From a virus (lineage: Duplodnaviria; Caudoviricetes): a stretch of DNA of 32,351 bases. The first letter of the stretch is position 1. Every line of letters starts with the position of its first letter. Positions 3,243-27,016 of this stretch are shown here, piece by piece. The stretch spans positions 1-32,351 of IMG/VR virus record IMGVR_UViG_3300035493_000087; one strand, written 5' to 3'. The translations under genes and the position numbers were made by a program. A model generated the notes under the pieces. The model saw only the letters and a list, made by a program, of their open reading frames with translations. It ran no database searches and had not been told where the DNA came from.

Positions 3243-4136
3243 TCATGCCGCTGCCTCCGTCACATCAAACAGCCCGATCGGCTGCCACTCATGCAGATCA
3301 ACACCGCTTTCGAATCGCTTGCCCCACTCGCGAACAGACAAACGGCGACCATTGATCTGCTTAACGAACAGCCTCGCACCCTCAGCCCAGCTATCTCGTT
3401 TCCACATGCCTCGCAGCGCACGACCAGCAGCGTCTGTCGGCTTGCCAGCATCAAGCCACGCCTGGTGCTTAGCATTGCTGGCTTCACGAAATCCGTCCTC
3501 GATCTCGACCGCCTTTGCCCACTCTTCCTGATGATTCAGATACATATCCTTGAGCTCCTCTTCACTCATGAACGGGCAGAAGAAGCAGCTCGACTTGTGA
3601 ACACCGCACCACCCCATATCAACCAACAAGCGGTCCAGCTTCTGTCGGGTCAGGCCAAGTTCAACCAACGGGTACCGGTACTCGGCGCAGCCATCCTTTG
3701 GAGCTGAAAAGCGCTTAACTCGACGCCCTTCGTCAGCCTCAATACCGATCTGCCAGACGGGCTGCATAATTCCTTCCGCTTTGGCCCAAGCCGCCAGCAC
3801 GTCACCCTTGAACTTCATCGAGCAAATATGAGAACCGCCCGGCAGGACTGGAACAGTACCCAGTCGCTTGCACCACTCAAAGATGGTTTCGCCAGCTTTG
3901 CGAGTAACGCAGAGCCGGTCGCCCAGCAGCTCGGCCACACGGTCAATTATCTTGTAGGTCACGGCGAACTCAGCACCTGTGTCAGCAAACACAGCTTTGT
4001 CGAATGGAGGGAATGCGCTATCCAGCTCACTGCGCTCAATGCCCAGGTACTCAGAAACCTGATCACGGTTCGCATCGATCACGACCAGCGCAGTACTATC
4101 AACGCCGCCGCCATAGCTCAGGATGACTTGCCTCAT
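3243..4136 (-). CDS. PAPS-reductase / adenine nucleotide alpha-hydrolase-like protein
   Basis: PP-loop SYGGGVDS, plus FADTGAE, CSMKFK, GIEADE, YPL and KSSCFFCPF. Confidence 0.8.
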   Translation of the reverse strand: MRQVILSYGGGVDSTALVVIDANRDQVSEYLGIERSELDSAFPPFDKAVFADTGAEFAVTYKIIDRVAELLGDRLCVTRKAGETIFEWCKRLGTVPVLPGGSHICSMKFKGDVLAAWAKAEGIMQPVWQIGIEADEGRRVKRFSAPKDGCAEYRYPLVELGLTRQKLDRLLVDMGWCGVHKSSCFFCPFMSEEELKDMYLNHQEEWAKAVEIEDGFREASNAKHQAWLDAGKPTDAAGRALRGMWKRDSWAEGARLFVKQINGRRLSVREWGKRFESGVDLHEWQPIGLFDVTEAAA

Positions 4137-6704: not shown

Positions 6705-6950
6705 TCAGGACCCTTTCGGGCCGGTGAGCGCTGCAGGCATATCGCCGGTGCGCCAGCCGGTGTGCTCGACTTTGAACTTGGCGGCATCCAACTGGGTGCG
6801 CGCGTTGTTGACGATGTCTTTGGAGATGCCGGACAGGGCGGTTGCCCGTTTGATTTCGGCTTCGAGTTCATCGCTGTTGAGCTCGCTGTTGCCCAGGCGG
6901 TCCAGTTGGGCGAACAGGTGGGCGTTGAGGTCGTTCAGGGTGTTGCTCAT
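6705..6950 (-). CDS. Conserved phage protein, usually found upstream of HNH genes
   Basis: MSNTLNDLNAHLFAQLDRL motif; AAGGAG ribosome binding site. Confidence 0.75.
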   Translation of the reverse strand: MSNTLNDLNAHLFAQLDRLGNSELNSDELEAEIKRATALSGISKDIVNNARTQLDAAKFKVEHTGWRTGDMPAALTGPKGS

Positions 6951-7837
6951 TGCGGATCTCCTTTGAATGGGGCCGCGCCGTTGTCTTCTGCATCGAGCGC
7001 TGCCAGTATCTCTATTTCTGCAAATTCGCGTTCGTGCAGCTCGATCACGAATGCCAGGCAGCACATGGCGTGCGCAAGGTGTGGCAGGCCGGTTTCGGGG
7101 TCGCTGTGTTCGCCGATCCTTTGGGCGTTGATGTGGCGCAGTGCTGCGGCGATGTAGCGGTTTTCAGCATCGGGTACATGCTGCCAGTTGCCGGGGGCGT
7201 ACTTGTTGGCGCCGAAGGTGAGCACTCTGGCCAGCATTTCCTCTGCCCTGGGCGGGATCAGGTCGAAGCGGGGTTTGTCCTGGTCGTGCTTGATGCCGAC
7301 CTTTTCGTTGGCGTCACCGGAATGGTTGCCGACCATTTTGCGGGCGTCAGCAATATGGTCTGAACTGCCCGGCACTTCCGGAGGGTTGGGCTTGAGGCCG
7401 GGATGTATCACGCGATCTACGCTGCCCGGGTTGGGTGCCATGCAGCCGATCCATTGTTTCGAGCCGCTTTTCCAACACTCCCAGCCGTACTGGCCTAGTC
7501 GGAAATAGTAGCTCCCTGTAACGTGGGTGGCGGTATCCAGTGGCGGCAGCGCTACCAGAGTGTTGATAATGGCTTGCTCTGGCCGCGGGGCGTGCAACCA
7601 GTCACGGCCGTCTTTTGCTCGCCAGAACCACCATTTGCCATCATGCGCGATTTTGTACCAGCCCGGAACATGACCGATTGCGCCCGGGCTCCAGTAGTGC
7701 GCGGCCGCCGGTCGCTGATCGGCTGGCTCGATTCGGGTGTCGACGTGCCGCTGTTCGTCGCCAGTGTCTTCCAGGTAGTGGTCACCTGTCGGGCCGTTTT
7801 GGCCGATGATGTCCATGCGGCTTACTTGATTGCCCAT
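6947..7837 (-). CDS. Protein with a C-terminal dATP/dGTP diphosphohydrolase-like (DUF5664) domain
   Basis: GIKHDQDKPRFDLIP...VLTFGANKYAPGNW...RYIAAALRH...DPETGLPHLAHAMCC. Confidence 0.8.
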   Translation of the reverse strand: MGNQVSRMDIIGQNGPTGDHYLEDTGDEQRHVDTRIEPADQRPAAAHYWSPGAIGHVPGWYKIAHDGKWWFWRAKDGRDWLHAPRPEQAIINTLVALPPLDTATHVTGSYYFRLGQYGWECWKSGSKQWIGCMAPNPGSVDRVIHPGLKPNPPEVPGSSDHIADARKMVGNHSGDANEKVGIKHDQDKPRFDLIPPRAEEMLARVLTFGANKYAPGNWQHVPDAENRYIAAALRHINAQRIGEHSDPETGLPHLAHAMCCLAFVIELHEREFAEIEILAALDAEDNGAAPFKGDPQ

Positions 7838-11187: not shown

Positions 11188-11430
11188 TTACGATCTGCTG
11201 CGGTGCCAGAATTCGGCGCCGTCGATTGGGTTGCCGCCCCAGGCGATCCAGCGGTTGCCATGTTCATCAATGGCGTTGATGCCGGGTTGCCAGGTGTGCG
11301 GGTCGCGCAGGCGGTCCATCCAGCCGGTGGGGATGCCTGCATTGAAGATCACCACGCCGCCGTTCAGGCGTTCGCGCTGGCGGTAGCGGGTTGCGGCTTG
11401 AGTGAGGAGGTTGTCGGTCAGGGCGGCCAT
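11188..11430 (-). CDS. ArdR-like protein
   Basis: GGVVIF...GWMDRLRDP..WQPG..AID..G..WIAWGGN..DGAEFW resembles proteins annotated as ArdR. Confidence 0.55.
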   Translation of the reverse strand: MAALTDNLLTQAATRYRQRERLNGGVVIFNAGIPTGWMDRLRDPHTWQPGINAIDEHGNRWIAWGGNPIDGAEFWHRSRS

Positions 11431-11582
11431 TACCACTCCTCCAGCATTTGGCGGAACACCGGGGCGACCGGTTCGCCCTGGTACAGCGCCATCAGGCAGT
11501 AAATGCCGGTGGCGATGGCCCAGCCGATGATGAACAAGGCGCAGATGGCTGCGCAGAATGCGATGATCAGAATTGCTTCCAT
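11430..11582 (-). CDS. Small membrane protein
   Basis: Hydrophobic 50-aa ORF with a GGGAG ribosome binding site. Confidence 0.55.
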   Translation of the reverse strand: MEAILIIAFCAAICALFIIGWAIATGIYCLMALYQGEPVAPVFRQMLEEW

Positions 11583-15828: not shown

Positions 15829-16400
15829 GGGGCACCCAGCGGCGGGGGATGGCGCCGACCGGTATCAGCTGTGAGTGTCCGGGCATGAAATAACCGCAGC
15901 AGCAGAGCGATGGCAAGACTCCTTGGCCTCACGGCTTAGCCAGGCGCTTTCCTGAAAGTACAGGGTGATACAGCTGCAGTGGGGCAGCGCCTTGGATGAG
16001 TAGGGTCGCGGACAGCCGGGAAAGACCGGTGCTTCTCTACTCCTCGGGCATGTTGTGCCGCTGGCAGATCGGCGCTCAAGACAATCTGCAAGCCATGAAG
16101 GTTCACGGACATAGCCGGTTCCCCGCGCCGGTGGCGACAGAGCGGGGCAACTGGATGTTCATTGGGTATGGCAACGAGCCGGTAAGTCTGTGACCACAGC
16201 GCCAGCTCAGTGAGCATCCAGTTGTGGCAACGCAACGGGCCTTAGGGCCACTGGCAGCCGGTAGCCGATAAGCCGGACAGCAGTGCGGAAAGTTACGGGG
16301 TCGAGGGCCGCACCCTGAGGACGCCCCAGCTTACAGGCAAAAGAAAACCCGATGCTCAATGGCCTGGCAGCCGCACCGGGTTAACTCAAAACAACGAGGT
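15829..16400 (+). ncRNA. Structured non-coding leader with serial hairpins (C4-like or other ncRNA candidate)
   Basis: Several inverted repeats, including a ~19-bp stem (16148-16166 pairing with 16206-16224) with G-U pairs. No convincing ORF. Confidence 0.45.
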
Positions 16401-16404
16401 CATT

Positions 16405-19463: not shown

Positions 19464-20006
19464 ATGGCGATCGACAAGGAAATGCGCAAACGGATCGACA
19501 ACCTGCTGGCGGTGTACCTGAACCACCTGGAGCGCCACGAAGCAGGCTGGCACTCGGAAAACGATCTTCAGCGCCTTGCCGACTACAAGGGCGACCTGCC
19601 CCCGCCGTCCGGTTTTGATCGGTCGAATGCGGCCATGATTGCGGCGCTTGGCATGACTCGGCAGCAGCATGCACAGCTGGTCAAGATCGAGTACCTGCTG
19701 GGCAAGCCTGTCCGGTGTCAGGACTGCGGCAAGGGCAATGATGCGCGCTGCGCCAGCTGCTCGGGGCTGGGGGTGCGACTGGTGAAAGGGGTGGTGAAGA
19801 ATGAGTATGCCATGGTGCTGCTGGCTGAGCGGTATTGGGTGCGGGATACCGCCAGCGTGGTCAGCGCCAGGCTTGGCTTGAGCGATCGCCAGTATGTGCA
19901 GCGCCTGATGCGCGCACGGGAGGCGCTGGCGCAGGAGATCGAGACGATTGATCGGATTCGACAGATGGTTTTGGAAGCGGAAGGACTGAGGGGTGTAAGT
20001 GCATGA
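19464..20006 (+). CDS. Q-like late antiterminator/activator
   Basis: Position after the resolvase, a CQDC...CASCSGLG zinc finger and a C-terminal HTH (SARLGLSDRQYVQRLMRAR). Confidence 0.65.
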   Translation: MAIDKEMRKRIDNLLAVYLNHLERHEAGWHSENDLQRLADYKGDLPPPSGFDRSNAAMIAALGMTRQQHAQLVKIEYLLGKPVRCQDCGKGNDARCASCSGLGVRLVKGVVKNEYAMVLLAERYWVRDTASVVSARLGLSDRQYVQRLMRAREALAQEIETIDRIRQMVLEAEGLRGVSA

Positions 20007-20473
20007 TTTTCAACTTTGATACAGATGAGCATGAAACAGCGGTGGCGGCTCTGGTGGTGTATGCCATCTACCGCAGCCGCGACAAGCGCCGGTTCAAGGT
20101 GAGCCCTGAAATGTGGGGCCAGATCGAGCGATTCACCAAGGCTTCGGCCAAGCGGGCGATCAACCTGCCGCGGTTCATGGATAGCATGATGCCGCGCATG
20201 CAATGCCCGTCAATCAACCCGAAATGGATGGAGGTCGGCATTAAAGGCGGGCTGCTGGCGCGTGAGAATTCAGCAGGTGGTACCGAGTTCATTGAGTTCA
20301 AGGCGGATGACAGCCGGGAGTTTATGACGCAGGTGCTGAACGGTGTGGATCACATGAGCGTGATCAACAAGCTCTACAAAGAAACTCAGTGGGTGGTGCT
20401 GTTGGTGCGTGAGCGCCTTGAGCGTGAAAAGCCGATTGAGTCATCTCTCATCATTGAAGAGGAATCCCTGTAA
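20003..20473 (+). CDS. Small helical subunit (Cas11-like) of the type IV-like complex
   Basis: 156-aa helical protein immediately upstream of csf2 (TAATG overlap), the usual position of the IV-B small subunit. Confidence 0.65.
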   Translation: MIFNFDTDEHETAVAALVVYAIYRSRDKRRFKVSPEMWGQIERFTKASAKRAINLPRFMDSMMPRMQCPSINPKWMEVGIKGGLLARENSAGGTEFIEFKADDSREFMTQVLNGVDHMSVINKLYKETQWVVLLVRERLEREKPIESSLIIEEESL

Positions 20474-21459
20474 TGAAGGGTCTGAAGCATTTTCGTATTT
20501 TCGGGCAGTTTACTACCCAGTCCCCGCTGTCCCATATCGGGGAAACCATCAGCACCACGACCTATCTGGTCGAGGAGCCCATTCTGCAGCCGTCTGGCGA
20601 GATCGAGCCGGTGTTCTGCTACAACGGCAATGCATGGCGTGGCCAGCTGCGCGATCTGGCGGCTCAGTACATGCTGGACAAGCTCGGTTGCACGGTGTCG
20701 TTGGAGGCGTTCCACCTGCTGTTCTCGGGTGGACGTATCGGCGGTGATCAGTCGGTGGATATCAACCAGGCTCGCCAAATGCGCCGGGTGGTGCCGATGA
20801 TCGGCCTGTTCGGTGGTGGTGTGGGCAACCAGATCATGCCGGGCAAGCTACGCGTGAGCTCAAGTTATCCGGTCTGCCGAGAGGCGTTGCCGGTACTCCC
20901 GGATGATCTGCATGCATCAGCGCTGGCGGTGAGTTACCGGCAGCTGACGATGGAAAAGAGCTACACCCGCATGGATGACAGCAAGAATGACAAGCTGACC
21001 GACCAACTGATCAGCGCTGTGGATGCGCCCCTGCTGGAGGGCGGCAAGGGCAAGAAGAAGGAAGGTGAGGCCAGCACGCAGATGCGCATGACCAGCGAGC
21101 TGTTGATCCCGGGTGTGGTGCTGCACCACGAGATCGATTGCTTGGATGTGTCGCTGATCGAGCTGGGAGCGCTGGTGTCGGCCATGAATGCGTTTGCGGC
21201 CAGCCCGTACATCGGCGGTCAGTGCAACCGTGGTCACGGACGGGTGAAGTACACCAGCACGATTCTGGATATGGAAACCGGCGAAACGCACGACTTCATC
21301 AAGGTGGATGGCGGTCTGGCCAAGCTGTCACAGCCGGCGGCTGAGGCGAAAGAGGCCTATGACCAACACCTGCAGGAGCAGTACGACCAGTTCCTGGCGA
21401 AGTCTGAAACCGAAATCCGTGGGCTACTGGGAGCTGAGCAATGTGGATCTCTGTTTTGA
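20473..21459 (+). CDS. csf2: Type IV CRISPR backbone protein Csf2 (Cas7 family RAMP)
   Basis: SPLSH, NGNAWRGQLRD, LLFSGG, PMIGLFGG, GKLRV and a G-rich IGGQCNRGHGRV. Confidence 0.88.
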   Translation: MKGLKHFRIFGQFTTQSPLSHIGETISTTTYLVEEPILQPSGEIEPVFCYNGNAWRGQLRDLAAQYMLDKLGCTVSLEAFHLLFSGGRIGGDQSVDINQARQMRRVVPMIGLFGGGVGNQIMPGKLRVSSSYPVCREALPVLPDDLHASALAVSYRQLTMEKSYTRMDDSKNDKLTDQLISAVDAPLLEGGKGKKKEGEASTQMRMTSELLIPGVVLHHEIDCLDVSLIELGALVSAMNAFAASPYIGGQCNRGHGRVKYTSTILDMETGETHDFIKVDGGLAKLSQPAAEAKEAYDQHLQEQYDQFLAKSETEIRGLLGAEQCGSLF

Positions 21460-22016
21460 GGAAGCCGGATGTGCCGCAGTATGCCTATCACCAGTTCCTG
21501 TGGCAGTACTTCCCGGATCTGGACAATACAGACGCGCCGCGCCCGTTTCTGTTCCGGGTATTGGGCGAGTCAATTCTAATGCTGAGCCGGTTAAAACCGG
21601 CCACTCAGCATGCAGTTGAAATCAAGGACCGGCTTGTACCCGGCACTGTTTACCAGTTCGATCTGCTGGCCAACCCGGCACGTGGTGGCACGATCACGCT
21701 GGAGGATGGCACCAAGAAGCGGGTTCCGCGCAAATCGTATAAAGGCAACCAGGAACGCAAAGACTGGCTGCGCCGTCGGTTTGAAGATGCTGGCGCTGAT
21801 TTGACGCTGGTGCAGGTGTACGACCGCCCTCAGCGGCGTTTTCGCAAAGCAGATGGCCGTCAGATCGTGATTGATGATGTGATCTATCGCGGCACGCTGA
21901 AGGTGACGGATCGCTCGCTATTTGCTGACAAGCTTTTGCAGGGCTTTGGCGGTCGAGGTGCCTGGGGGTGTGGGTTGTTGGTATTGCCGGAGGTGATGAG
22001 TGGATTCGGCCATTGA
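21441..22016 (+). CDS. cas6e: Cas6e (Cse3/CasE)-like RNA endonuclease
   Basis: YAYHQFLWQYF, FLFR, YQFDLLANP, WLRRR, GTLKVTD and a C-terminal G-loop GFGGRGAWGCGLL. Confidence 0.85.
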   Translation: MWISVLRKPDVPQYAYHQFLWQYFPDLDNTDAPRPFLFRVLGESILMLSRLKPATQHAVEIKDRLVPGTVYQFDLLANPARGGTITLEDGTKKRVPRKSYKGNQERKDWLRRRFEDAGADLTLVQVYDRPQRRFRKADGRQIVIDDVIYRGTLKVTDRSLFADKLLQGFGGRGAWGCGLLVLPEVMSGFGH

Positions 22017-22395
22017 TTATTTCTCTGGCGAACTGTCATTCGTGGGTGCCGGACAGGTGTTTGCACGTCACCCAGGCGGTCTGTCGCCCTGGTATACCCG
22101 CCGGATTATGACTACCAAGGATCTGGCCGGCATATTGGGGCGCGATGAATCCACGCTGCGCCAGCAGGCAGGATGTGGGCAGTTGTCGGGTACGCGTGGA
22201 CGGAACGGCTGGCGTTTTTCATGGCAGGATGTCAGCGATTATGTGGCGGACGGACTATGGAAACCACAGGAACACCGATTTTGGACGCCTGAGGAGCTGG
22301 ATAAGCTGGCACGTGGTGAGCCTGTACCTGGTCGTTCGCCAATGGCCTGCCGGATCAAGCGCTCGAAAATCAGGAGAGAAGCATGCAAGCATTGA
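22000..22395 (+). CDS. DNA-binding protein: excisionase-type HTH plus Myb/SANT-like C-terminus
   Basis: MTTKDLAGILGRDESTLRQQAGCGQLSG...WRFS, then FWTPEELDKL...GRSPMACRIKR. Alternative start at 22108. Confidence 0.7.
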   Translation: MDSAIDYFSGELSFVGAGQVFARHPGGLSPWYTRRIMTTKDLAGILGRDESTLRQQAGCGQLSGTRGRNGWRFSWQDVSDYVADGLWKPQEHRFWTPEELDKLARGEPVPGRSPMACRIKRSKIRREACKH

Positions 22396-23051
22396 AAATT
22401 ACGGCAGAGCTAATGACAGGCTTCGCCAGCTCGGACCCATGGAGCCCTGCTATCGATGGCATTTTGGCCTATCAGTTTATGCGCGAGAAACTGGGCGATG
22501 AAGAGTTTGCGATCCGTTCACACCGTATGGACTTGCAGGAGCCTGTCTCAGGATTGCCGCTAGGTGTTGAGCAACACGGTGACCAGTGGTGGTATCAGTG
22601 TTCATTCCCTGAGTACACCAGTGTAGCGGAGGTCACGCGGCACACGCACCGTCGCTTTGATGCGCGTCAGGCTGAAAAGTACTGGGGCACGCCCGGTAAG
22701 AGCGGCAAGGTGCTGGTGGCGGCAGGGCCCTACAAAAACGCTCGATTGAAACTGCGCCAGCATGTGACGCCTGCTGTTACCTGGTACTGCATTGGCGATC
22801 AGGCTGAAATCGAGCGGCTGCTGGCGCGGGTGACGCACGTCGGGGCGCGTGTTGGCGCTGGATATGGCCGCGTACGTAAGTGGACAGTAGAACCGGCAGA
22901 GTGTGAAACGCTGGCGCGATTCCGTAGGGGCTTGCCGGTCGAGTTCGCGCAGGCTCATCAGCTGGAGGGACAGGAGATGATCCACGGTATCCGCCCACCT
23001 GTTCGCCATCCTGATAACAAGACGCTGTGCGTGATGGTGGCGCATGGATAA
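22383..23051 (+). CDS. csf3: Type IV CRISPR protein Csf3 (Cas5 family RAMP)
   Basis: LKITAEL, IDGILA, WYQCS, GPYK, WYCIGD...IERLL, G-loop VGARVGAGYGRV and RPP. Confidence 0.85.
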   Translation: MQALKITAELMTGFASSDPWSPAIDGILAYQFMREKLGDEEFAIRSHRMDLQEPVSGLPLGVEQHGDQWWYQCSFPEYTSVAEVTRHTHRRFDARQAEKYWGTPGKSGKVLVAAGPYKNARLKLRQHVTPAVTWYCIGDQAEIERLLARVTHVGARVGAGYGRVRKWTVEPAECETLARFRRGLPVEFAQAHQLEGQEMIHGIRPPVRHPDNKTLCVMVAHG

Positions 23052-23742
23052 GGCTCAGTCAGAGCGTGCCCGCTTGTACGCAAAGCTGCCGGTTTACCGC
23101 CGGCGGCTGGCACAGGCCATGGCAATTATCGAGGAGGGGCTGGAGCGATGCGATAGCCCCTATGTCGCCTGTTCATTCGGCAAGGATTCGGCCGTGGTGC
23201 TGCATATGGTGCGGCAGTTGGTGCCGGATGTGCAGGCACGGTTTATCAGCTGGCCGGAGACGGAGCTGCTGGGTGACTATGAGCGCGTGATGGGTGAATG
23301 GCGCGCACTGGGCGCTGATATTCGAGTGCTTAACCTGAGTCGCAAGACGCTGGATGAGAAGGTGGCCGACCGCTGGCTGCAGCTGCAGGCCGTTGAGCCG
23401 GCAGACGGGTATTTCTCGGGCATGCGGAAAGAAGAAAGTCGCGCAAGGCGGGTGATCCTGAATAGCCAGGGCGCTATCGCCTACATAAAGCAGAGTGGCA
23501 CAGTGCGGATCTGTCCGATCGCTGACTGGAAAACGGAGGATGTGGCTGCATATGTCGTTGAACACGACCTGCCCACGCTGAAAGCCTATAAAGATCATGG
23601 ATTTGAGACGCGAACTGCATCCAGAGTACCAAGAGCTGCATTCTCGATAAGGGAACAGGCGCTGGAGCAGCTGCGGCAGGATGATCCTGCTGCATATCGA
23701 CAACTGGAACAAATGTACCCGGAGGTGGCGCAGTGGCGGTGA
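23044..23742 (+). CDS. CysH/PAPS-reductase-like protein of type IV-B loci
   Basis: PP-loop SFGKDS, GMRKEESRAR and PIADWKTEDVAAY. Confidence 0.85.
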   Translation: MDKAQSERARLYAKLPVYRRRLAQAMAIIEEGLERCDSPYVACSFGKDSAVVLHMVRQLVPDVQARFISWPETELLGDYERVMGEWRALGADIRVLNLSRKTLDEKVADRWLQLQAVEPADGYFSGMRKEESRARRVILNSQGAIAYIKQSGTVRICPIADWKTEDVAAYVVEHDLPTLKAYKDHGFETRTASRVPRAAFSIREQALEQLRQDDPAAYRQLEQMYPEVAQWR

Positions 23743-24506
23743 GTATTACGCAGTGGTTTTGGCATGAGTGCCTAGGGATGGATAAATGGCTGCCGCCGGA
23801 GCCGAAATCCAAGAAAAAAGACCGTTTTGGCCCTGATCCGGATTGCTGGCTATGTGGTGGGCCAACGCATGGCAAGGGATGGCCCCTCAAGGACGGGATA
23901 CCGCCAACTTTCACTGATTTTAACCAGGCAAAAGCGCCATGGTCGCTAACGGCGTGTGGTGCCTGTGTGGCGATGTCGAGCAGTGCAGCCTATGGCCAGT
24001 ATGCTGAGCGCGAGGGTAAGCCGCTGACATTCCCGGTCAAAGAGGGCAAGAAGCCTCGGGCGTTGAACTGGCTCTATTTCAGTCATGTGGTGTCACCGAC
24101 CGAGTATCATCAGCCAGACCGCAAGCAGTGGCGCGATCTGCTACTGGAACCGCCTGAACCGCCATTCCTGATGGCAATGGCCGTAAACGGCAAAAAGCAT
24201 GTGATATTCCGGGGCATGACGAACAACAGTCGTGATCAATACGTAGTGCAGGCTGATGAGGAGCGCATCCATGTTGACCGGGCTCAGTTTTCCGAGATGC
24301 TGGCGCAGTTCGAGGAGGCGTATAACGCAGGGTTCAGCAAAGACAGCCTGTTGACCGGCCAGTACAACCAGGCAGCGATTATGTCTGCCGGGTTGTCGGT
24401 GTGGCGTCGGGTCGAGGAGCAGATGAGCCTCTGGCGACAGCATCATCCGGGGCTGCTCCAGCTGGCGCATTTCGTAGGGCAAAAAAAAGATTCAGAAAAC
24501 GTTTGA
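23733..24506 (+). CDS. csf1: Type IV CRISPR large subunit Csf1 (Cas8-like)
   Basis: CWLCG...FTD...CGAC zinc site, LLEPPEPPF and KKHVIFR. Confidence 0.85.
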   Translation: MAVSITQWFWHECLGMDKWLPPEPKSKKKDRFGPDPDCWLCGGPTHGKGWPLKDGIPPTFTDFNQAKAPWSLTACGACVAMSSSAAYGQYAEREGKPLTFPVKEGKKPRALNWLYFSHVVSPTEYHQPDRKQWRDLLLEPPEPPFLMAMAVNGKKHVIFRGMTNNSRDQYVVQADEERIHVDRAQFSEMLAQFEEAYNAGFSKDSLLTGQYNQAAIMSAGLSVWRRVEEQMSLWRQHHPGLLQLAHFVGQKKDSENV

Positions 24507-24531
24507 CTCGGTATGACACCTGTCATACAAT
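24503..24531 (+). promoter_or_regulatory. Near-consensus sigma70 promoter with a palindromic operator
   Basis: TTGACT-17 bp-TACAAT. GTATGACA-CC-TGTCATAC (24511-24528) spans the spacer and the -10 element. Confidence 0.82.
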
Positions 24532-24615
24532 TAAAACGTGGTCAGGGATGACTGGCCACAAACCCTAACTCAGAGAGCCGAAGCGCATAAGCGGGTGAGG
24601 CAAAGGAGAAACACC

Positions 24616-25134
24616 ATGTTCTACGTAATCGAAAACAAATACACCGGCCCGAACCAGGATCAGGACCAGTACGCTGATGTTGACACTGTCGTGATCAGCA
24701 GCGCTCCCGCGGTAACAAATTCCAGCAACGAAGAGCGCACTGAAGGCTGGTGCGGAACCACCAACGATTGGGCGGTTTACGCCCATGGCGAATTCGAAAC
24801 CATCGAAGCTGCCCGTGCTGCTATCGCTGAGAAATTTGGTGATGTGCGTGACCGCGATGCCAATTGGGACGAGTTCGAGTCAATGGATGACGATGTGGTC
24901 GAGGTTTTCAAGCCTGGCAAGTATGAGCCGATGTGCAAAGAAGCGGTTGCAGACTGGTCATATGAAACCGCCAAGGAAGAGATCACCGCAGAGACTACCG
25001 ATGAAGCGATCGCTGGCATGGTCGATGAGTATGAGCGCGAAGCGAACATGAATGGGAGCTCTTGCGCTGATCATATCGAAGATGTGCTGATCGAGTTCCG
25101 CGACAATCTGCGTGAAGAACTGGAAAACGAATAA
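24616..25134 (+). CDS. Highly acidic hypothetical protein (anti-defence candidate)
   Basis: AAGGAG ribosome binding site; 172 aa, about a quarter Asp/Glu. Confidence 0.8.
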   Translation: MFYVIENKYTGPNQDQDQYADVDTVVISSAPAVTNSSNEERTEGWCGTTNDWAVYAHGEFETIEAARAAIAEKFGDVRDRDANWDEFESMDDDVVEVFKPGKYEPMCKEAVADWSYETAKEEITAETTDEAIAGMVDEYEREANMNGSSCADHIEDVLIEFRDNLREELENE

Positions 25135-25141
25135 CAGTATC

Positions 25142-25166
25142 AGCCCGGCCATGCGCCGGGCTTTTT
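25142..25166 (+). terminator. Intrinsic terminator
   Basis: AGCCCGGC-CATGC-GCCGGGCT followed by a T run. Confidence 0.8.
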
Positions 25167-25175
25167 GGAGGTGTT

Positions 25176-25538
25176 ATGAGTCAAGACAAGAAACTGCCAA
25201 GGAATCCGTCATTCACACCATGCCCCGGGCTGCGTGCCGATCTTGAAGATCATCGTGATGCTCTTGGCGTAACAGGTCGTCTGAATCAGGTGTGGGATCG
25301 GTACGAAGCCATGATCAAGCAGGAGTCACTACCGCTCACAGAAGAGGAAGAGTTCGTGCTCAAGCAGGCGATGATGGGCAGTTACGTTGAGCCGTTGCTG
25401 ATCCGATACCTTGAGGCCGAGATTCAGGATTGTGATGCGTACCTGGCCGGGTCTGCTGCTGCGAAGAGCTTGGCTGAGAAGCTGGAGTCTGCGAGCTATG
25501 CGCAGAAACTGGCGACGATTGAGAAAGCTGGGTTTTAA
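25176..25538 (+). CDS. Hypothetical protein, possible regulator
   Basis: GGAGG ribosome binding site; 120 aa with a beta-alpha-alpha-like N-terminus. Confidence 0.7.
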   Translation: MSQDKKLPRNPSFTPCPGLRADLEDHRDALGVTGRLNQVWDRYEAMIKQESLPLTEEEEFVLKQAMMGSYVEPLLIRYLEAEIQDCDAYLAGSAAAKSLAEKLESASYAQKLATIEKAGF

Positions 25539-25542
25539 GTAA

Positions 25543-26364
25543 ATGCCTGCACCAGTTGACCTGACCGGCCGTGTATTTGGTGATCTGGAAGTGATCCGCA
25601 AGGTTGGCAGGGATGAAAGTATCAAGACTGTATCACACAGCTGGATATGGTTGTGTCACTGCCGTAAGTGCGGAAGGGATGAGGAAATAACCCAAGGATT
25701 GATTCCGTATACTCCAAATTTGGCCAAGAAGAGCAAGCTGGCACGGTACGCTTGCACGATTTGCATGCGCGGTCCTTGTGAGATATGCGGTGCAGAGATT
25801 GAAGATGGCACGTATGTTGGCGTCTGCTCAGAGTCGTGCTATCTGGAGCGTCGGCGGAAAAACTTTAGGAATTATCATTACCGTCAACTAGAAGAAGACC
25901 CTGATTACTGGAAAAAAACAGCAGCTCAGAAACTGGCAAAGCTTGATTGTGATCCCGAAAAAAAAGAGCGGTTTCTGCAGAAAGATAGAGAGAGAAATCG
26001 CAAGTACAGAGATCTAAATAGGGATGCAATCAATGCCCGCGCCCGGGAGAGCTACGCGAGAACGCGCGACGAAGTGATTGCAAGGCGCAAGAAAAGGCTA
26101 GCAGCCATGTCGGCAGAAGAGCGACTGATGTTGGAGATTAATCAGCGTCAATACGCCATTGAGTGGTGGAGTAAGAATGGCAAGCGTGTTCTAAAAGAGC
26201 GTAAAGATAGGCTGCGCAATATGTCAGCGGATGAGCGTGAGCGGTATGTTCGGCAGCGCCGTGAGTATAACAGAGAGCGCAGATTGATCAGGGACGCTGA
26301 AAAAGCCTTGTCTGATTTGATGTCAATAGGGGAGCAGCTTAATGAGCTTGGTAGAGAAAAGTAG
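25543..26364 (+). CDS. Cys-rich, highly basic putative nucleic-acid-binding protein
   Basis: DLTGRVFGDLEVI...WLCHCRKCG (an N-terminus seen in HNH/AP2-associated proteins), CTIC/CEIC/CSESC, and a long K/R-rich helix. Confidence 0.7.
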   Translation: MPAPVDLTGRVFGDLEVIRKVGRDESIKTVSHSWIWLCHCRKCGRDEEITQGLIPYTPNLAKKSKLARYACTICMRGPCEICGAEIEDGTYVGVCSESCYLERRRKNFRNYHYRQLEEDPDYWKKTAAQKLAKLDCDPEKKERFLQKDRERNRKYRDLNRDAINARARESYARTRDEVIARRKKRLAAMSAEERLMLEINQRQYAIEWWSKNGKRVLKERKDRLRNMSADERERYVRQRREYNRERRLIRDAEKALSDLMSIGEQLNELGREK

Positions 26365-27016
26365 TAACAGCCTGGCGGAGCTTGAGCGATCAGACCTTAA
26401 AAGCCTGGATACACATGAGCTAAAGCAGCTGCTGAGCGCTGCTGTATCGGTAACGGCGCAATACATCCAGTTCATAGCGCGGGTTTGGCATGAGTTGGAA
26501 AGCCGAGGGGAAGACCTGAGCGAGCTTAGAAGCGGCTTGATGCGTTACCTGCCACTGGTACATGATGGAAAGCTGGATGCCTCTGTTGTCATATCATTTG
26601 CTGGGCAACAGCTGCTTCTGCGTGAAGTCGCCCTAATGCCAGTCGAAGAGCAAAAGCGCCTGGCTGGGGGTGAAAAGATACCGCTGGTAACCCAGAATGC
26701 CGCTGGAGACTTCAGTACTGCATGGGTTGATGTGAAAACACTACACGCCAGGCACTACAGTCAGGTTTTTAACATGGGTGAGGTAAGGACCGAGCAAGAA
26801 CAGATTGCTATACTGTCAAAGCCAGCCCAAAGAAAGCGAAGAAATCAGAAAGTTAGGCGTAAAAAAGTGCATTTCGAGAGCGATGTTTTTCGCTGCGGTC
26901 AAACTAAGATATTGGCGGAAGATTTACTTGATGCGCTATCTGGAATCAGCGGAAAGCCTGTGTCAGACATAAGAGACTTTCTTGGCATCAAGCCTAATCA
27001 CGATGAAGAACTGTAA
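26342..27016 (+). CDS. Hypothetical protein
   Basis: 224-aa ORF overlapping the previous gene. Confidence 0.7.
   Translation: MSLVEKSSNSLAELERSDLKSLDTHELKQLLSAAVSVTAQYIQFIARVWHELESRGEDLSELRSGLMRYLPLVHDGKLDASVVISFAGQQLLLREVALMPVEEQKRLAGGEKIPLVTQNAAGDFSTAWVDVKTLHARHYSQVFNMGEVRTEQEQIAILSKPAQRKRRNQKVRRKKVHFESDVFRCGQTKILAEDLLDALSGISGKPVSDIRDFLGIKPNHDEEL

Follow-up and report, generated by a model that had tools for sequence, protein, structure and literature searches.

The 32,351-nt viral record IMGVR_UViG_3300035493_000087 (hereafter the window, meaning this whole stretch, to which all positions refer unless another locus is named) carries at 20003..24506 a run of seven overlapping genes, all on the + strand, that make up a type IV CRISPR effector operon with its own Cas6e-type RNase and a CysH-like enzyme. 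The first gene, cas11 (20003..20473), encodes a type IV small subunit of 156 aa (PADLOC typeIV_Cas11, 7e-50) and is followed by csf2 (20473..21459), for the 328-aa Cas7 backbone (PADLOC 2e-72), and by cas6e (21441..22016), for an RNase of 191 aa (PADLOC Cas6e, 2e-29). Next come an accessory helix-turn-helix (HTH) protein of 131 aa (22000..22395; a weak Pfam match to HTH_17, 7.5e-4), the 222-aa Cas5-like Csf3 (22383..23051; PADLOC 1e-43), the CysH-like PP-loop enzyme of 232 aa (23044..23742; Pfam PAPS_reduct PF01507, 4e-13) and finally csf1 (23733..24506), whose 257-aa large subunit (PADLOC 7e-34) has a zinc finger at C38/C41/C75/C78. The NCBIfam profiles for Csf1, Csf2 and Csf3 matched with scores under their cut-offs, while that for Cas6e (TIGR01907) scored over its own. 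A first-pass annotation made from the letters alone had named these seven genes, and PADLOC, NCBIfam and Pfam confirm them.

For comparison we gathered 190 loci from five collection scans (L-numbers denote loci, G-numbers records or assemblies); 169, the window included, have a long Csf2, and 123 remain at 95% identity. This sample was seeded from the window and is biased. A cultured close relative was not found among GenBank phages and plasmids, where the matches, one phage (Skermania SPI1) and 64 plasmid records, all fall below 60% identity.

The gene content is that of subtype IV-B, as the first-pass annotation had proposed, and profile and solved-structure matches bear out both the assignment and the gene identities. 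The csf1, csf2 and csf3 core and the Cas11 subunit are present, and the CysH-like protein has a PP-loop and lacks the catalytic Cys. DinG, RecD, Cas10 and adaptation genes (cas1, cas2) were absent from the 37 window open reading frames (ORFs) scanned with Pfam and from 22 ORFs in the right arm of a relative, G025 (92% identity over 17.5-25.5 kb). Repeat searches of the window returned no CRISPR array, and neither the window nor G025 holds an interference nuclease, so that the absences listed in the first-pass annotation are upheld. The locus has neither the DinG helicase and array of IV-A3 nor the RecD helicase and array of IV-D. We file it as an IV-B variant because of its Cas6e; the usual lack of Cas6 in IV-B is not strict and is described as holding 'with rare exceptions'. 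By sequence, Csf2 is closest among solved structures to 7JHY (7e-15), then to 'Cas7c' 11fs (4e-13), with other Csf2 entries at 2e-6 or weaker; the Csf2 tree used below was built without reference sequences for subtypes IV-A to IV-E.

The Csf complex of Mycobacterium sp. JS623 (PDB 7JHY; PMC7937560, PMC8175902) shares with the window csf1, cas11, csf2, csf3 and a cysH-like gene without the catalytic Cys, as well as a location on a mobile element and the lack of an array, adaptation genes, helicase and nuclease. The window differs in having its own Cas6e fixed after csf2, an accessory HTH gene, csf1 in last place and a position in the interval between Q and the lysis genes of a lambdoid phage, and its relatives differ further in having a TGT-like, methyltransferase-like or radical SAM gene in the CysH slot. 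The residue aligned to Asp42 is Ser or Gly, and an acidic residue lies three positions upstream in 121/123 sequences. Subtype IV-A3 (10.1101/780106, PMC11656645) resembles the window in a Cas6 recruited from type I-E and in reliance in trans on host functions, but there DinG and an array are present while Cas11 and CysH are missing, the reverse of the arrangement here. The IV-B system of Fuxivirus (10.1101/2023.08.24.554615) is likewise virus-encoded with a CysH-like gene; it differs in belonging to an archaeal virus and in having a mini-array, and the available text does not mention Cas6.

The carrier is a temperate phage with lambdoid genes (integrase, Cro/CI-like, O-like, resolvase, lysozyme, terminases and portal). 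The first-pass annotation had called it a lambdoid prophage; the lambdoid temperate phage stands, and its integrated state we infer, because the record, a 32 kb viral contig that ends in the portal gene and is missing its head-tail arm, has no host flanks. The operon lies between a Q-like antiterminator candidate (19464..20006, +), named for its position before the late promoter and lysozyme and for weak matches to PA0613 and phrog_5285, and the lysis genes; an equivalent gene occupies the same position in L001 and L002. The cas11 start overlaps the stop codon of the Q-like gene and the operon ends 2.6 kb upstream of lysozyme, and it likely rides on the delayed-early rightward transcript. G025 does carry the head-tail arm that the window is missing, and that arm too is free of an array and, across 22 ORFs, of helicase and cas1 genes; a cognate array with dinG or adaptation genes elsewhere in the prophage, the finding by which the first-pass annotation would have stood refuted, did not turn up there.

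Purifying selection is strong on all seven genes (ratio of nonsynonymous to synonymous rates, dN/dS, 0.01-0.06 in comparison with G025). The values are 0.003/0.226 for cas11 (against L001), 0.008/0.289 for csf2, 0.027/0.49 for the HTH gene and 0.009/0.515, or ~0.02, for cas6e, which shows 4 non-synonymous and 52 synonymous changes. The HTH protein combines an excisionase-like HTH with a C-terminal W-T-x-x-E motif; homologs occur in L001, L002, L029 and L030, and it is absent from L111, whose Csf2 is 90% identical, so that it is an accessory part. A 91-nt gap before its first ATG was considered as a possible RNA and ruled out, since L029 conserves this N-terminal extension at the protein level. 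IV-B operons from several clades (L012, L036, L082, L029) likewise have, inside or close by, a small HTH protein bearing a W/Y-S/T-x-x-E motif.

The RNase belongs to the Cas6e (CasE/Cse3) family. It scores 1e-27 to 1e-29 with the I-E models of PADLOC and far more weakly (8e-10) with type IV Cas6 models, and aligns with E. coli CasE at 2e-10. His17, taken to be catalytic as in E. coli CasE, is present in all 30 copies covering the position, the Tyr just before it varies, and G168 and G170 of the C-terminal Gly-rich loop are kept in 29/29. The window's Csf2 falls in a clade of 12 rows (SH-aLRT 95) in which cas6e directly follows csf2 without exception (12/12). In a FastTree comparison with two references only, the phage proteins share ~30% identity or less with the I-E Cas6e of hosts, and the copy in L099 is no nearer to the I-E Cas6e of its own host than other phage copies are; on this sequence evidence the clade's Cas6e fits an old lineage with long co-inheritance. 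Those of L107 and L154 look like separate captures. Elsewhere in phage IV-B clades we found generic Cas6, Cas6f and Cas6b, at least four Cas6 types overall, and 29/67 complete non-redundant loci have a Cas6 gene within 1.6 kb and 31/67 have one within 3 kb, fractions that give no global rate because the sample was seeded from the window. In L169 (1297-9013), csf1, csf3 and cysH are duplicated around a Cas6e. A phage variant equipped with its own RNA-processing enzyme was a claim of the first-pass annotation; the enzyme is indeed conserved, under selection and in possession of its His, and it is not a lone case, being clade-wide, accompanied by other Cas6 captures and preceded by the rare cases noted in the available text of 10.1101/780106. 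Given a conserved and selected Cas6e with its catalytic His kept, it is a fair inference that the complex would load a defined RNA.

The second variable of the operon is the enzyme slot. In the window's CysH-like protein the PP-loop and Arg-loop residues are kept (S44, G46, D48, S49, G126, E131 and R135 are invariant among 43 sequences) and the C-terminal catalytic Cys is missing; its model (predicted local distance difference test, pLDDT, 94) is nearest in fold to FAD synthase (Z 18.1), APR-B (18.0) and CysD (17.5). This slot turns over, since the CysH-like protein of L002 is just 36% identical to that of the window and its other Cas proteins are 61-84% identical. Within the clade the slot holds cysH in the window, L002, L097 and L115, a TGT-like gene in L093 (and partially in L117), and a methyltransferase-like gene in L092, L113 and L118, with L111, L114 and L116 ending too early. 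In a census of 67 complete non-redundant loci, which are related to one another and were sorted into categories chosen post hoc, 61 have cysH and none of the TGT-like, methyltransferase-like or radical SAM genes; the six without cysH have a TGT-like gene (four) or a radical SAM gene (two), never both kinds.

The TGT-like family was missed by sequence searches of solved structures and was found by folding alone. Its model (pLDDT 83) ranks TGT (Z 16.9), Cap10 (15.3), DpdA (15.0) and QTRT2 above all other barrels, the next of which scores 13.6, and two Asp are invariant, so that both the barrel fold and the catalytic aspartates of the TGT/DpdA family are present in the predicted model. Cap10 was the top Foldseek match, and the Atlas pointed weakly to DpdA (17% of one cluster). 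The L093-type protein shares with TGT, DpdA and Cap10 the TIM-barrel fold (Z 15-17) and conserved Asp motifs, and differs from them in its size of ~240 aa, in having no extra domains and in being almost confined to csf operons: a search from the TGT alignment returned 19 viral loci, of which 17 belong to csf operons that contain no cysH, and the two outside were the weakest matches. Because these 17 include three contigs of alignment members, five apparent copies of one phage and a few truncated contigs, we count about nine as independent. The methyltransferase-like gene also occupies the exact slot in L216, the only new locus of its search (1/1 in a csf operon).

Other genes join cysH without replacing it (glycosyltransferase-like, DNA methylase-like and IbrB-like; the IbrB label and the first glycosyltransferase label are in part provisional), and among the accessory neighbours are genes for a DNA methylase-like protein, for a TET-associated glycosyltransferase and for QueC. 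In a Cas6f clade (L157:1427-6480, L055, L164, L183) TGT-like and glycosyltransferase-like genes lie between csf1 and cas11, with QueC too in L157, where a local deazaguanine supply is possible. An abiF RNA motif (RF03085) lies at L093:13629-13665, right after csf1 and adjoining the attachment site.

Host CRISPR systems bear on the source of the RNA. We searched 17 host assemblies, of which eight have an IV-B Cas6e, with a second Cas6e in one (G008). Hosts of the window's clade carry I-F1 (G001, G006) or I-F2 (G002); a second cas6e or an I-E array pattern was not found in the regions and searches examined for these three, which show I-F repeats only, and this weakens the case in this clade for host type I-E CRISPR RNA (crRNA), one of the two sources offered by the first-pass annotation. 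An I-E-type array is present in G004. In G002, 2/13 spacers match the prophage perfectly and one more does so with 2 mismatches, all with a CC protospacer-adjacent motif (PAM); in G006, where 20 spacers were parsed and one array was covered in part, three match the prophage at 31/32, 31/32 and 29/32, again with a CC PAM. Clade phages do meet CRISPR pressure. No known anti-CRISPR (Acr) was detected among the small ORFs scanned of G002, L092, L002 and the window. In the Cas6-less IV-B host G010, no spacer matched the 21 kb searched.

We propose that the seven-gene operon encodes a predicted RNA-bound complex that would guide a swappable base-modifying enzyme to a complementary nucleic acid, a chain of steps that, taken whole, we hold as possible and somewhat short of an even chance. 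Judging from Cas6 chemistry, Cas6e would cut at a hairpin and cap the complex, giving RNAs with defined ends, and Csf2 and Cas11 would polymerise on the trimmed hairpin RNA. That this guide is a crRNA taken in trans from CRISPR transcripts, by a Cas6e of relaxed repeat specificity, is a tentative step, suggested by the absence of an array throughout the clade and by the I-F systems of its hosts; host spacers may then direct the complex to protospacers or transcripts of the phage itself. Csf1, Csf3 and Cas11 would offer up the paired target for marking by the enzyme, without cutting, and this pairing of a scaffold with a modifying enzyme is the step we consider probable. The idea, already in the first-pass annotation, that the complex aims the CysH-like enzyme thus gains support from the enzyme swaps. 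The mark could be an adenylation or ligation in the window, where the CysH-like enzyme is predicted to use ATP, and a base exchange or methylation in relatives, and the likely benefit to the phage would be an advantage over rival elements or the CRISPR system of its host. Since the complexes are nuclease-free and relatives swap in predicted base-exchange or methylating enzymes, these complexes likely deliver chemical marks and not cuts; CasCysH has been proposed, in the available text of PMC8175902, to modify bound nucleic acid through an ATP alpha-hydrolase activity.

Several observations weigh against this proposal. All three clade hosts have I-F repeats, to which a type e Cas6 is mismatched; the G002 assembly is a metagenome bin, and its array and prophage may therefore come from different cells; and AcrIF11 (2.5e-35) in the G006 prophage explains the self-targeting there. 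Spacers of G001 (42) and G004 (3) have no match, and those of G008 (121 I-E spacers) match only with 3 or more mismatches. A Cas6-less IV-B complex gave no enrichment of co-expressed I-E crRNA (PMC7937560), and IV-B negatively co-occurs with other CRISPR systems in the data available from 10.1101/780106. The SAM-methyltransferase call rests on weak matches of E 0.003-0.5.

It may instead be that the guide is phage-made, in the form of a hairpin RNA whose sequence is not conserved (from a degenerate mini-array, from a solitary repeat or from the non-coding region 15829-16404) and which directs the enzyme to sequences of the host or of rivals, a reading we regard as doubtful. Mini-arrays do lie near the operon in 2/9 related records scanned whole: two or three degenerate I-E-like repeats in G021 (L052, with Cas6e; 11430-11520, period 55/51, ~0.5 kb from the operon) and a four-repeat mini-array, likewise I-E-like, in G027 (L049; 13535-13750, period 61) adjoining a generic Cas6, and their spacers found no target among the fetched loci. 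The window itself has a 575-nt structured non-coding stretch (15829-16404, +) that begins with a Proteo-phage-1 RNA (RF03044) and can form two further hairpins, one long and the other, near 16120-16148, I-E-like and interrupted, but the stretch is absent from 16 related records searched. The interrupted hairpin was tried as a guide and set aside, having no match in viral contigs. No exact repeat pair or I-E-like hairpin serving as a guide was seen in the window, and arrays and degenerate repeat pairs were absent from the window, from the whole records G018, G019, G022, G024, G025 and G026, and from G020, which has terminal repeats and is likely complete. A masked all-against-all blastn of 32 Cas6e loci left tRNA as the only shared non-coding element among the matches listed; Rfam returned Proteo-phage-1 as the sole match at gathering score in the window, and neither that search nor one on 9 loci gave a guide RNA for it. 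The phage non-coding RNA offered as a guide by the first-pass annotation is therefore not borne out as a conserved element by repeat and non-coding searches of the window or most relatives. At one contig end, L176 has two CRISPR repeats (29-125) immediately upstream of cas11, and this IV-B-like operon may have an array.

The complex could also be a pure crRNA sponge, in which Cas6e captures host crRNA into an inert assembly, with an enzyme that is either incidental or acts on the crRNA itself. This has been proposed before (PMC8175902 and 10.1101/780106, in the portions available), and it would account for the lack of array and nuclease, the repeated capture of Cas6 and the self-targeting hosts G002 and G006. 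It leaves unexplained the constant presence of the enzyme and its one-for-one swaps, however, and it meets the same I-F hosts with a type e Cas6, the same AcrIF11 in G006 and the same 7JHY complex without crRNA enrichment (PMC7937560), and we consider it unlikely.

Less probable still is that the enzyme modifies a protein or small molecule and is activated by the complex, acting as sensor or scaffold. Nucleic-acid modifiers are known in each of the four swapped families, and the neighbours (DNA methylase-like, TET-associated glycosyltransferase, QueC) point the same way, as does the lack of a conserved partner protein in the window's clade. On the other side, the top Foldseek match of the TGT-like swap is Cap10, and the nearest folds of the CysH-like enzyme, FAD synthase and CysD, adenylate small molecules. 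Cap9 and Cap10 of type IV cyclic oligonucleotide-based antiphage signalling systems (CBASS) are a precedent for TGT and PP-loop folds acting on proteins (10.1101/2025.04.06.647259, available portion), and because these folds also act on proteins, the substrate in our proposal may not be nucleic acid. That this is an ordinary or decaying type IV locus, with a passenger Cas6 or with array and DinG elsewhere in the phage, fits the missing head-tail arm and the absence of Cas6 from 36/67 complete loci, some of them inside the wider Cas6e group, but is largely refuted and hardly credible given a cas6e fixed in 12/12 with dN/dS of ~0.02 and a relative's arm without array or helicase.

Other modules surround the operon. 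A separate cassette, conserved in L001, follows it at 24503..25538 (+), with a sigma70-like promoter bearing a palindrome (10/12 matches), a hairpin leader (fold z -2.4) and two ORFs, for an acidic 172-aa protein (24616-25134) and a 120-aa protein (25176-25538). Its layout resembles that of acr-aca pairs and makes it a candidate anti-defence cassette; no named family matched, and Atlas and family searches were blank for the 172-aa ORF. Similar promoter-leader cassettes with other small ORFs follow the operon in L002 and L127. The two low-GC ORFs beyond (25543-27016, +), one weakly HNH-like, are an insertion, being absent in L001 and skipped in a contig of run X5. The left arm encodes another PP-loop protein that is distantly PAPS-reductase-like (12% identity, hhalign probability 93%) and, in addition, a protein with a dATP/dGTP diphosphohydrolase domain (3243-4136 and 6947-7837, both -), possibly a separate DNA-modification module. 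G025 has a diversity-generating retroelement, with Avd and reverse transcriptase, after its tail genes (L232:903-2473). In the G006 prophage that carries the IV-B operon, AcrIF11 is followed near the contig end by a small ORF and then by a protein of 420 aa whose C-terminal half is Csy2 (Cas5f)-like (L249:7306-9262, G006:C3); these are possibly a second CRISPR-derived module.

Phage carriage of IV-B and an occasional Cas6 in it are not new: in the available portions of the literature, IV-B is described as lacking array and Cas6 (PMC8175902), as lacking Cas6 'with rare exceptions' and sometimes residing in prophages (10.1101/780106), and viral IV-B was already known, its function open as of 2024-25 (10.1101/2023.08.24.554615, PMC12669027, PMC11656645). 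What is new is the fixed Cas6e clade, the I-F systems of its hosts and the exchange, one for one, of the slot enzyme for a TGT-like or methyltransferase-like one; a literature search that did not cover subscription papers linked no phage Cas6e clade to IV-B and found no transglycosylase or methyltransferase swap tied to it.

What IV-B does has been an open question from the time the subtype was defined, and reviews single out two missing keys, the source of its RNA and what CasCysH contributes. A clade that conserves a Cas6e of its own offers a handle for catching that RNA, and the one-for-one TGT-fold swaps open the way to assays of known chemistry, namely base exchange. It is tempting, if speculative, to view phage IV-B systems at large as RNA-guided base-modification machines with interchangeable heads, of which those bearing Cas6 might load host crRNAs and mark the phage sites that CRISPR attacks. 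If guidance proves true, this would be a nuclease-free programmable modifier occurring in nature, and it could represent a new form of counter-defence.

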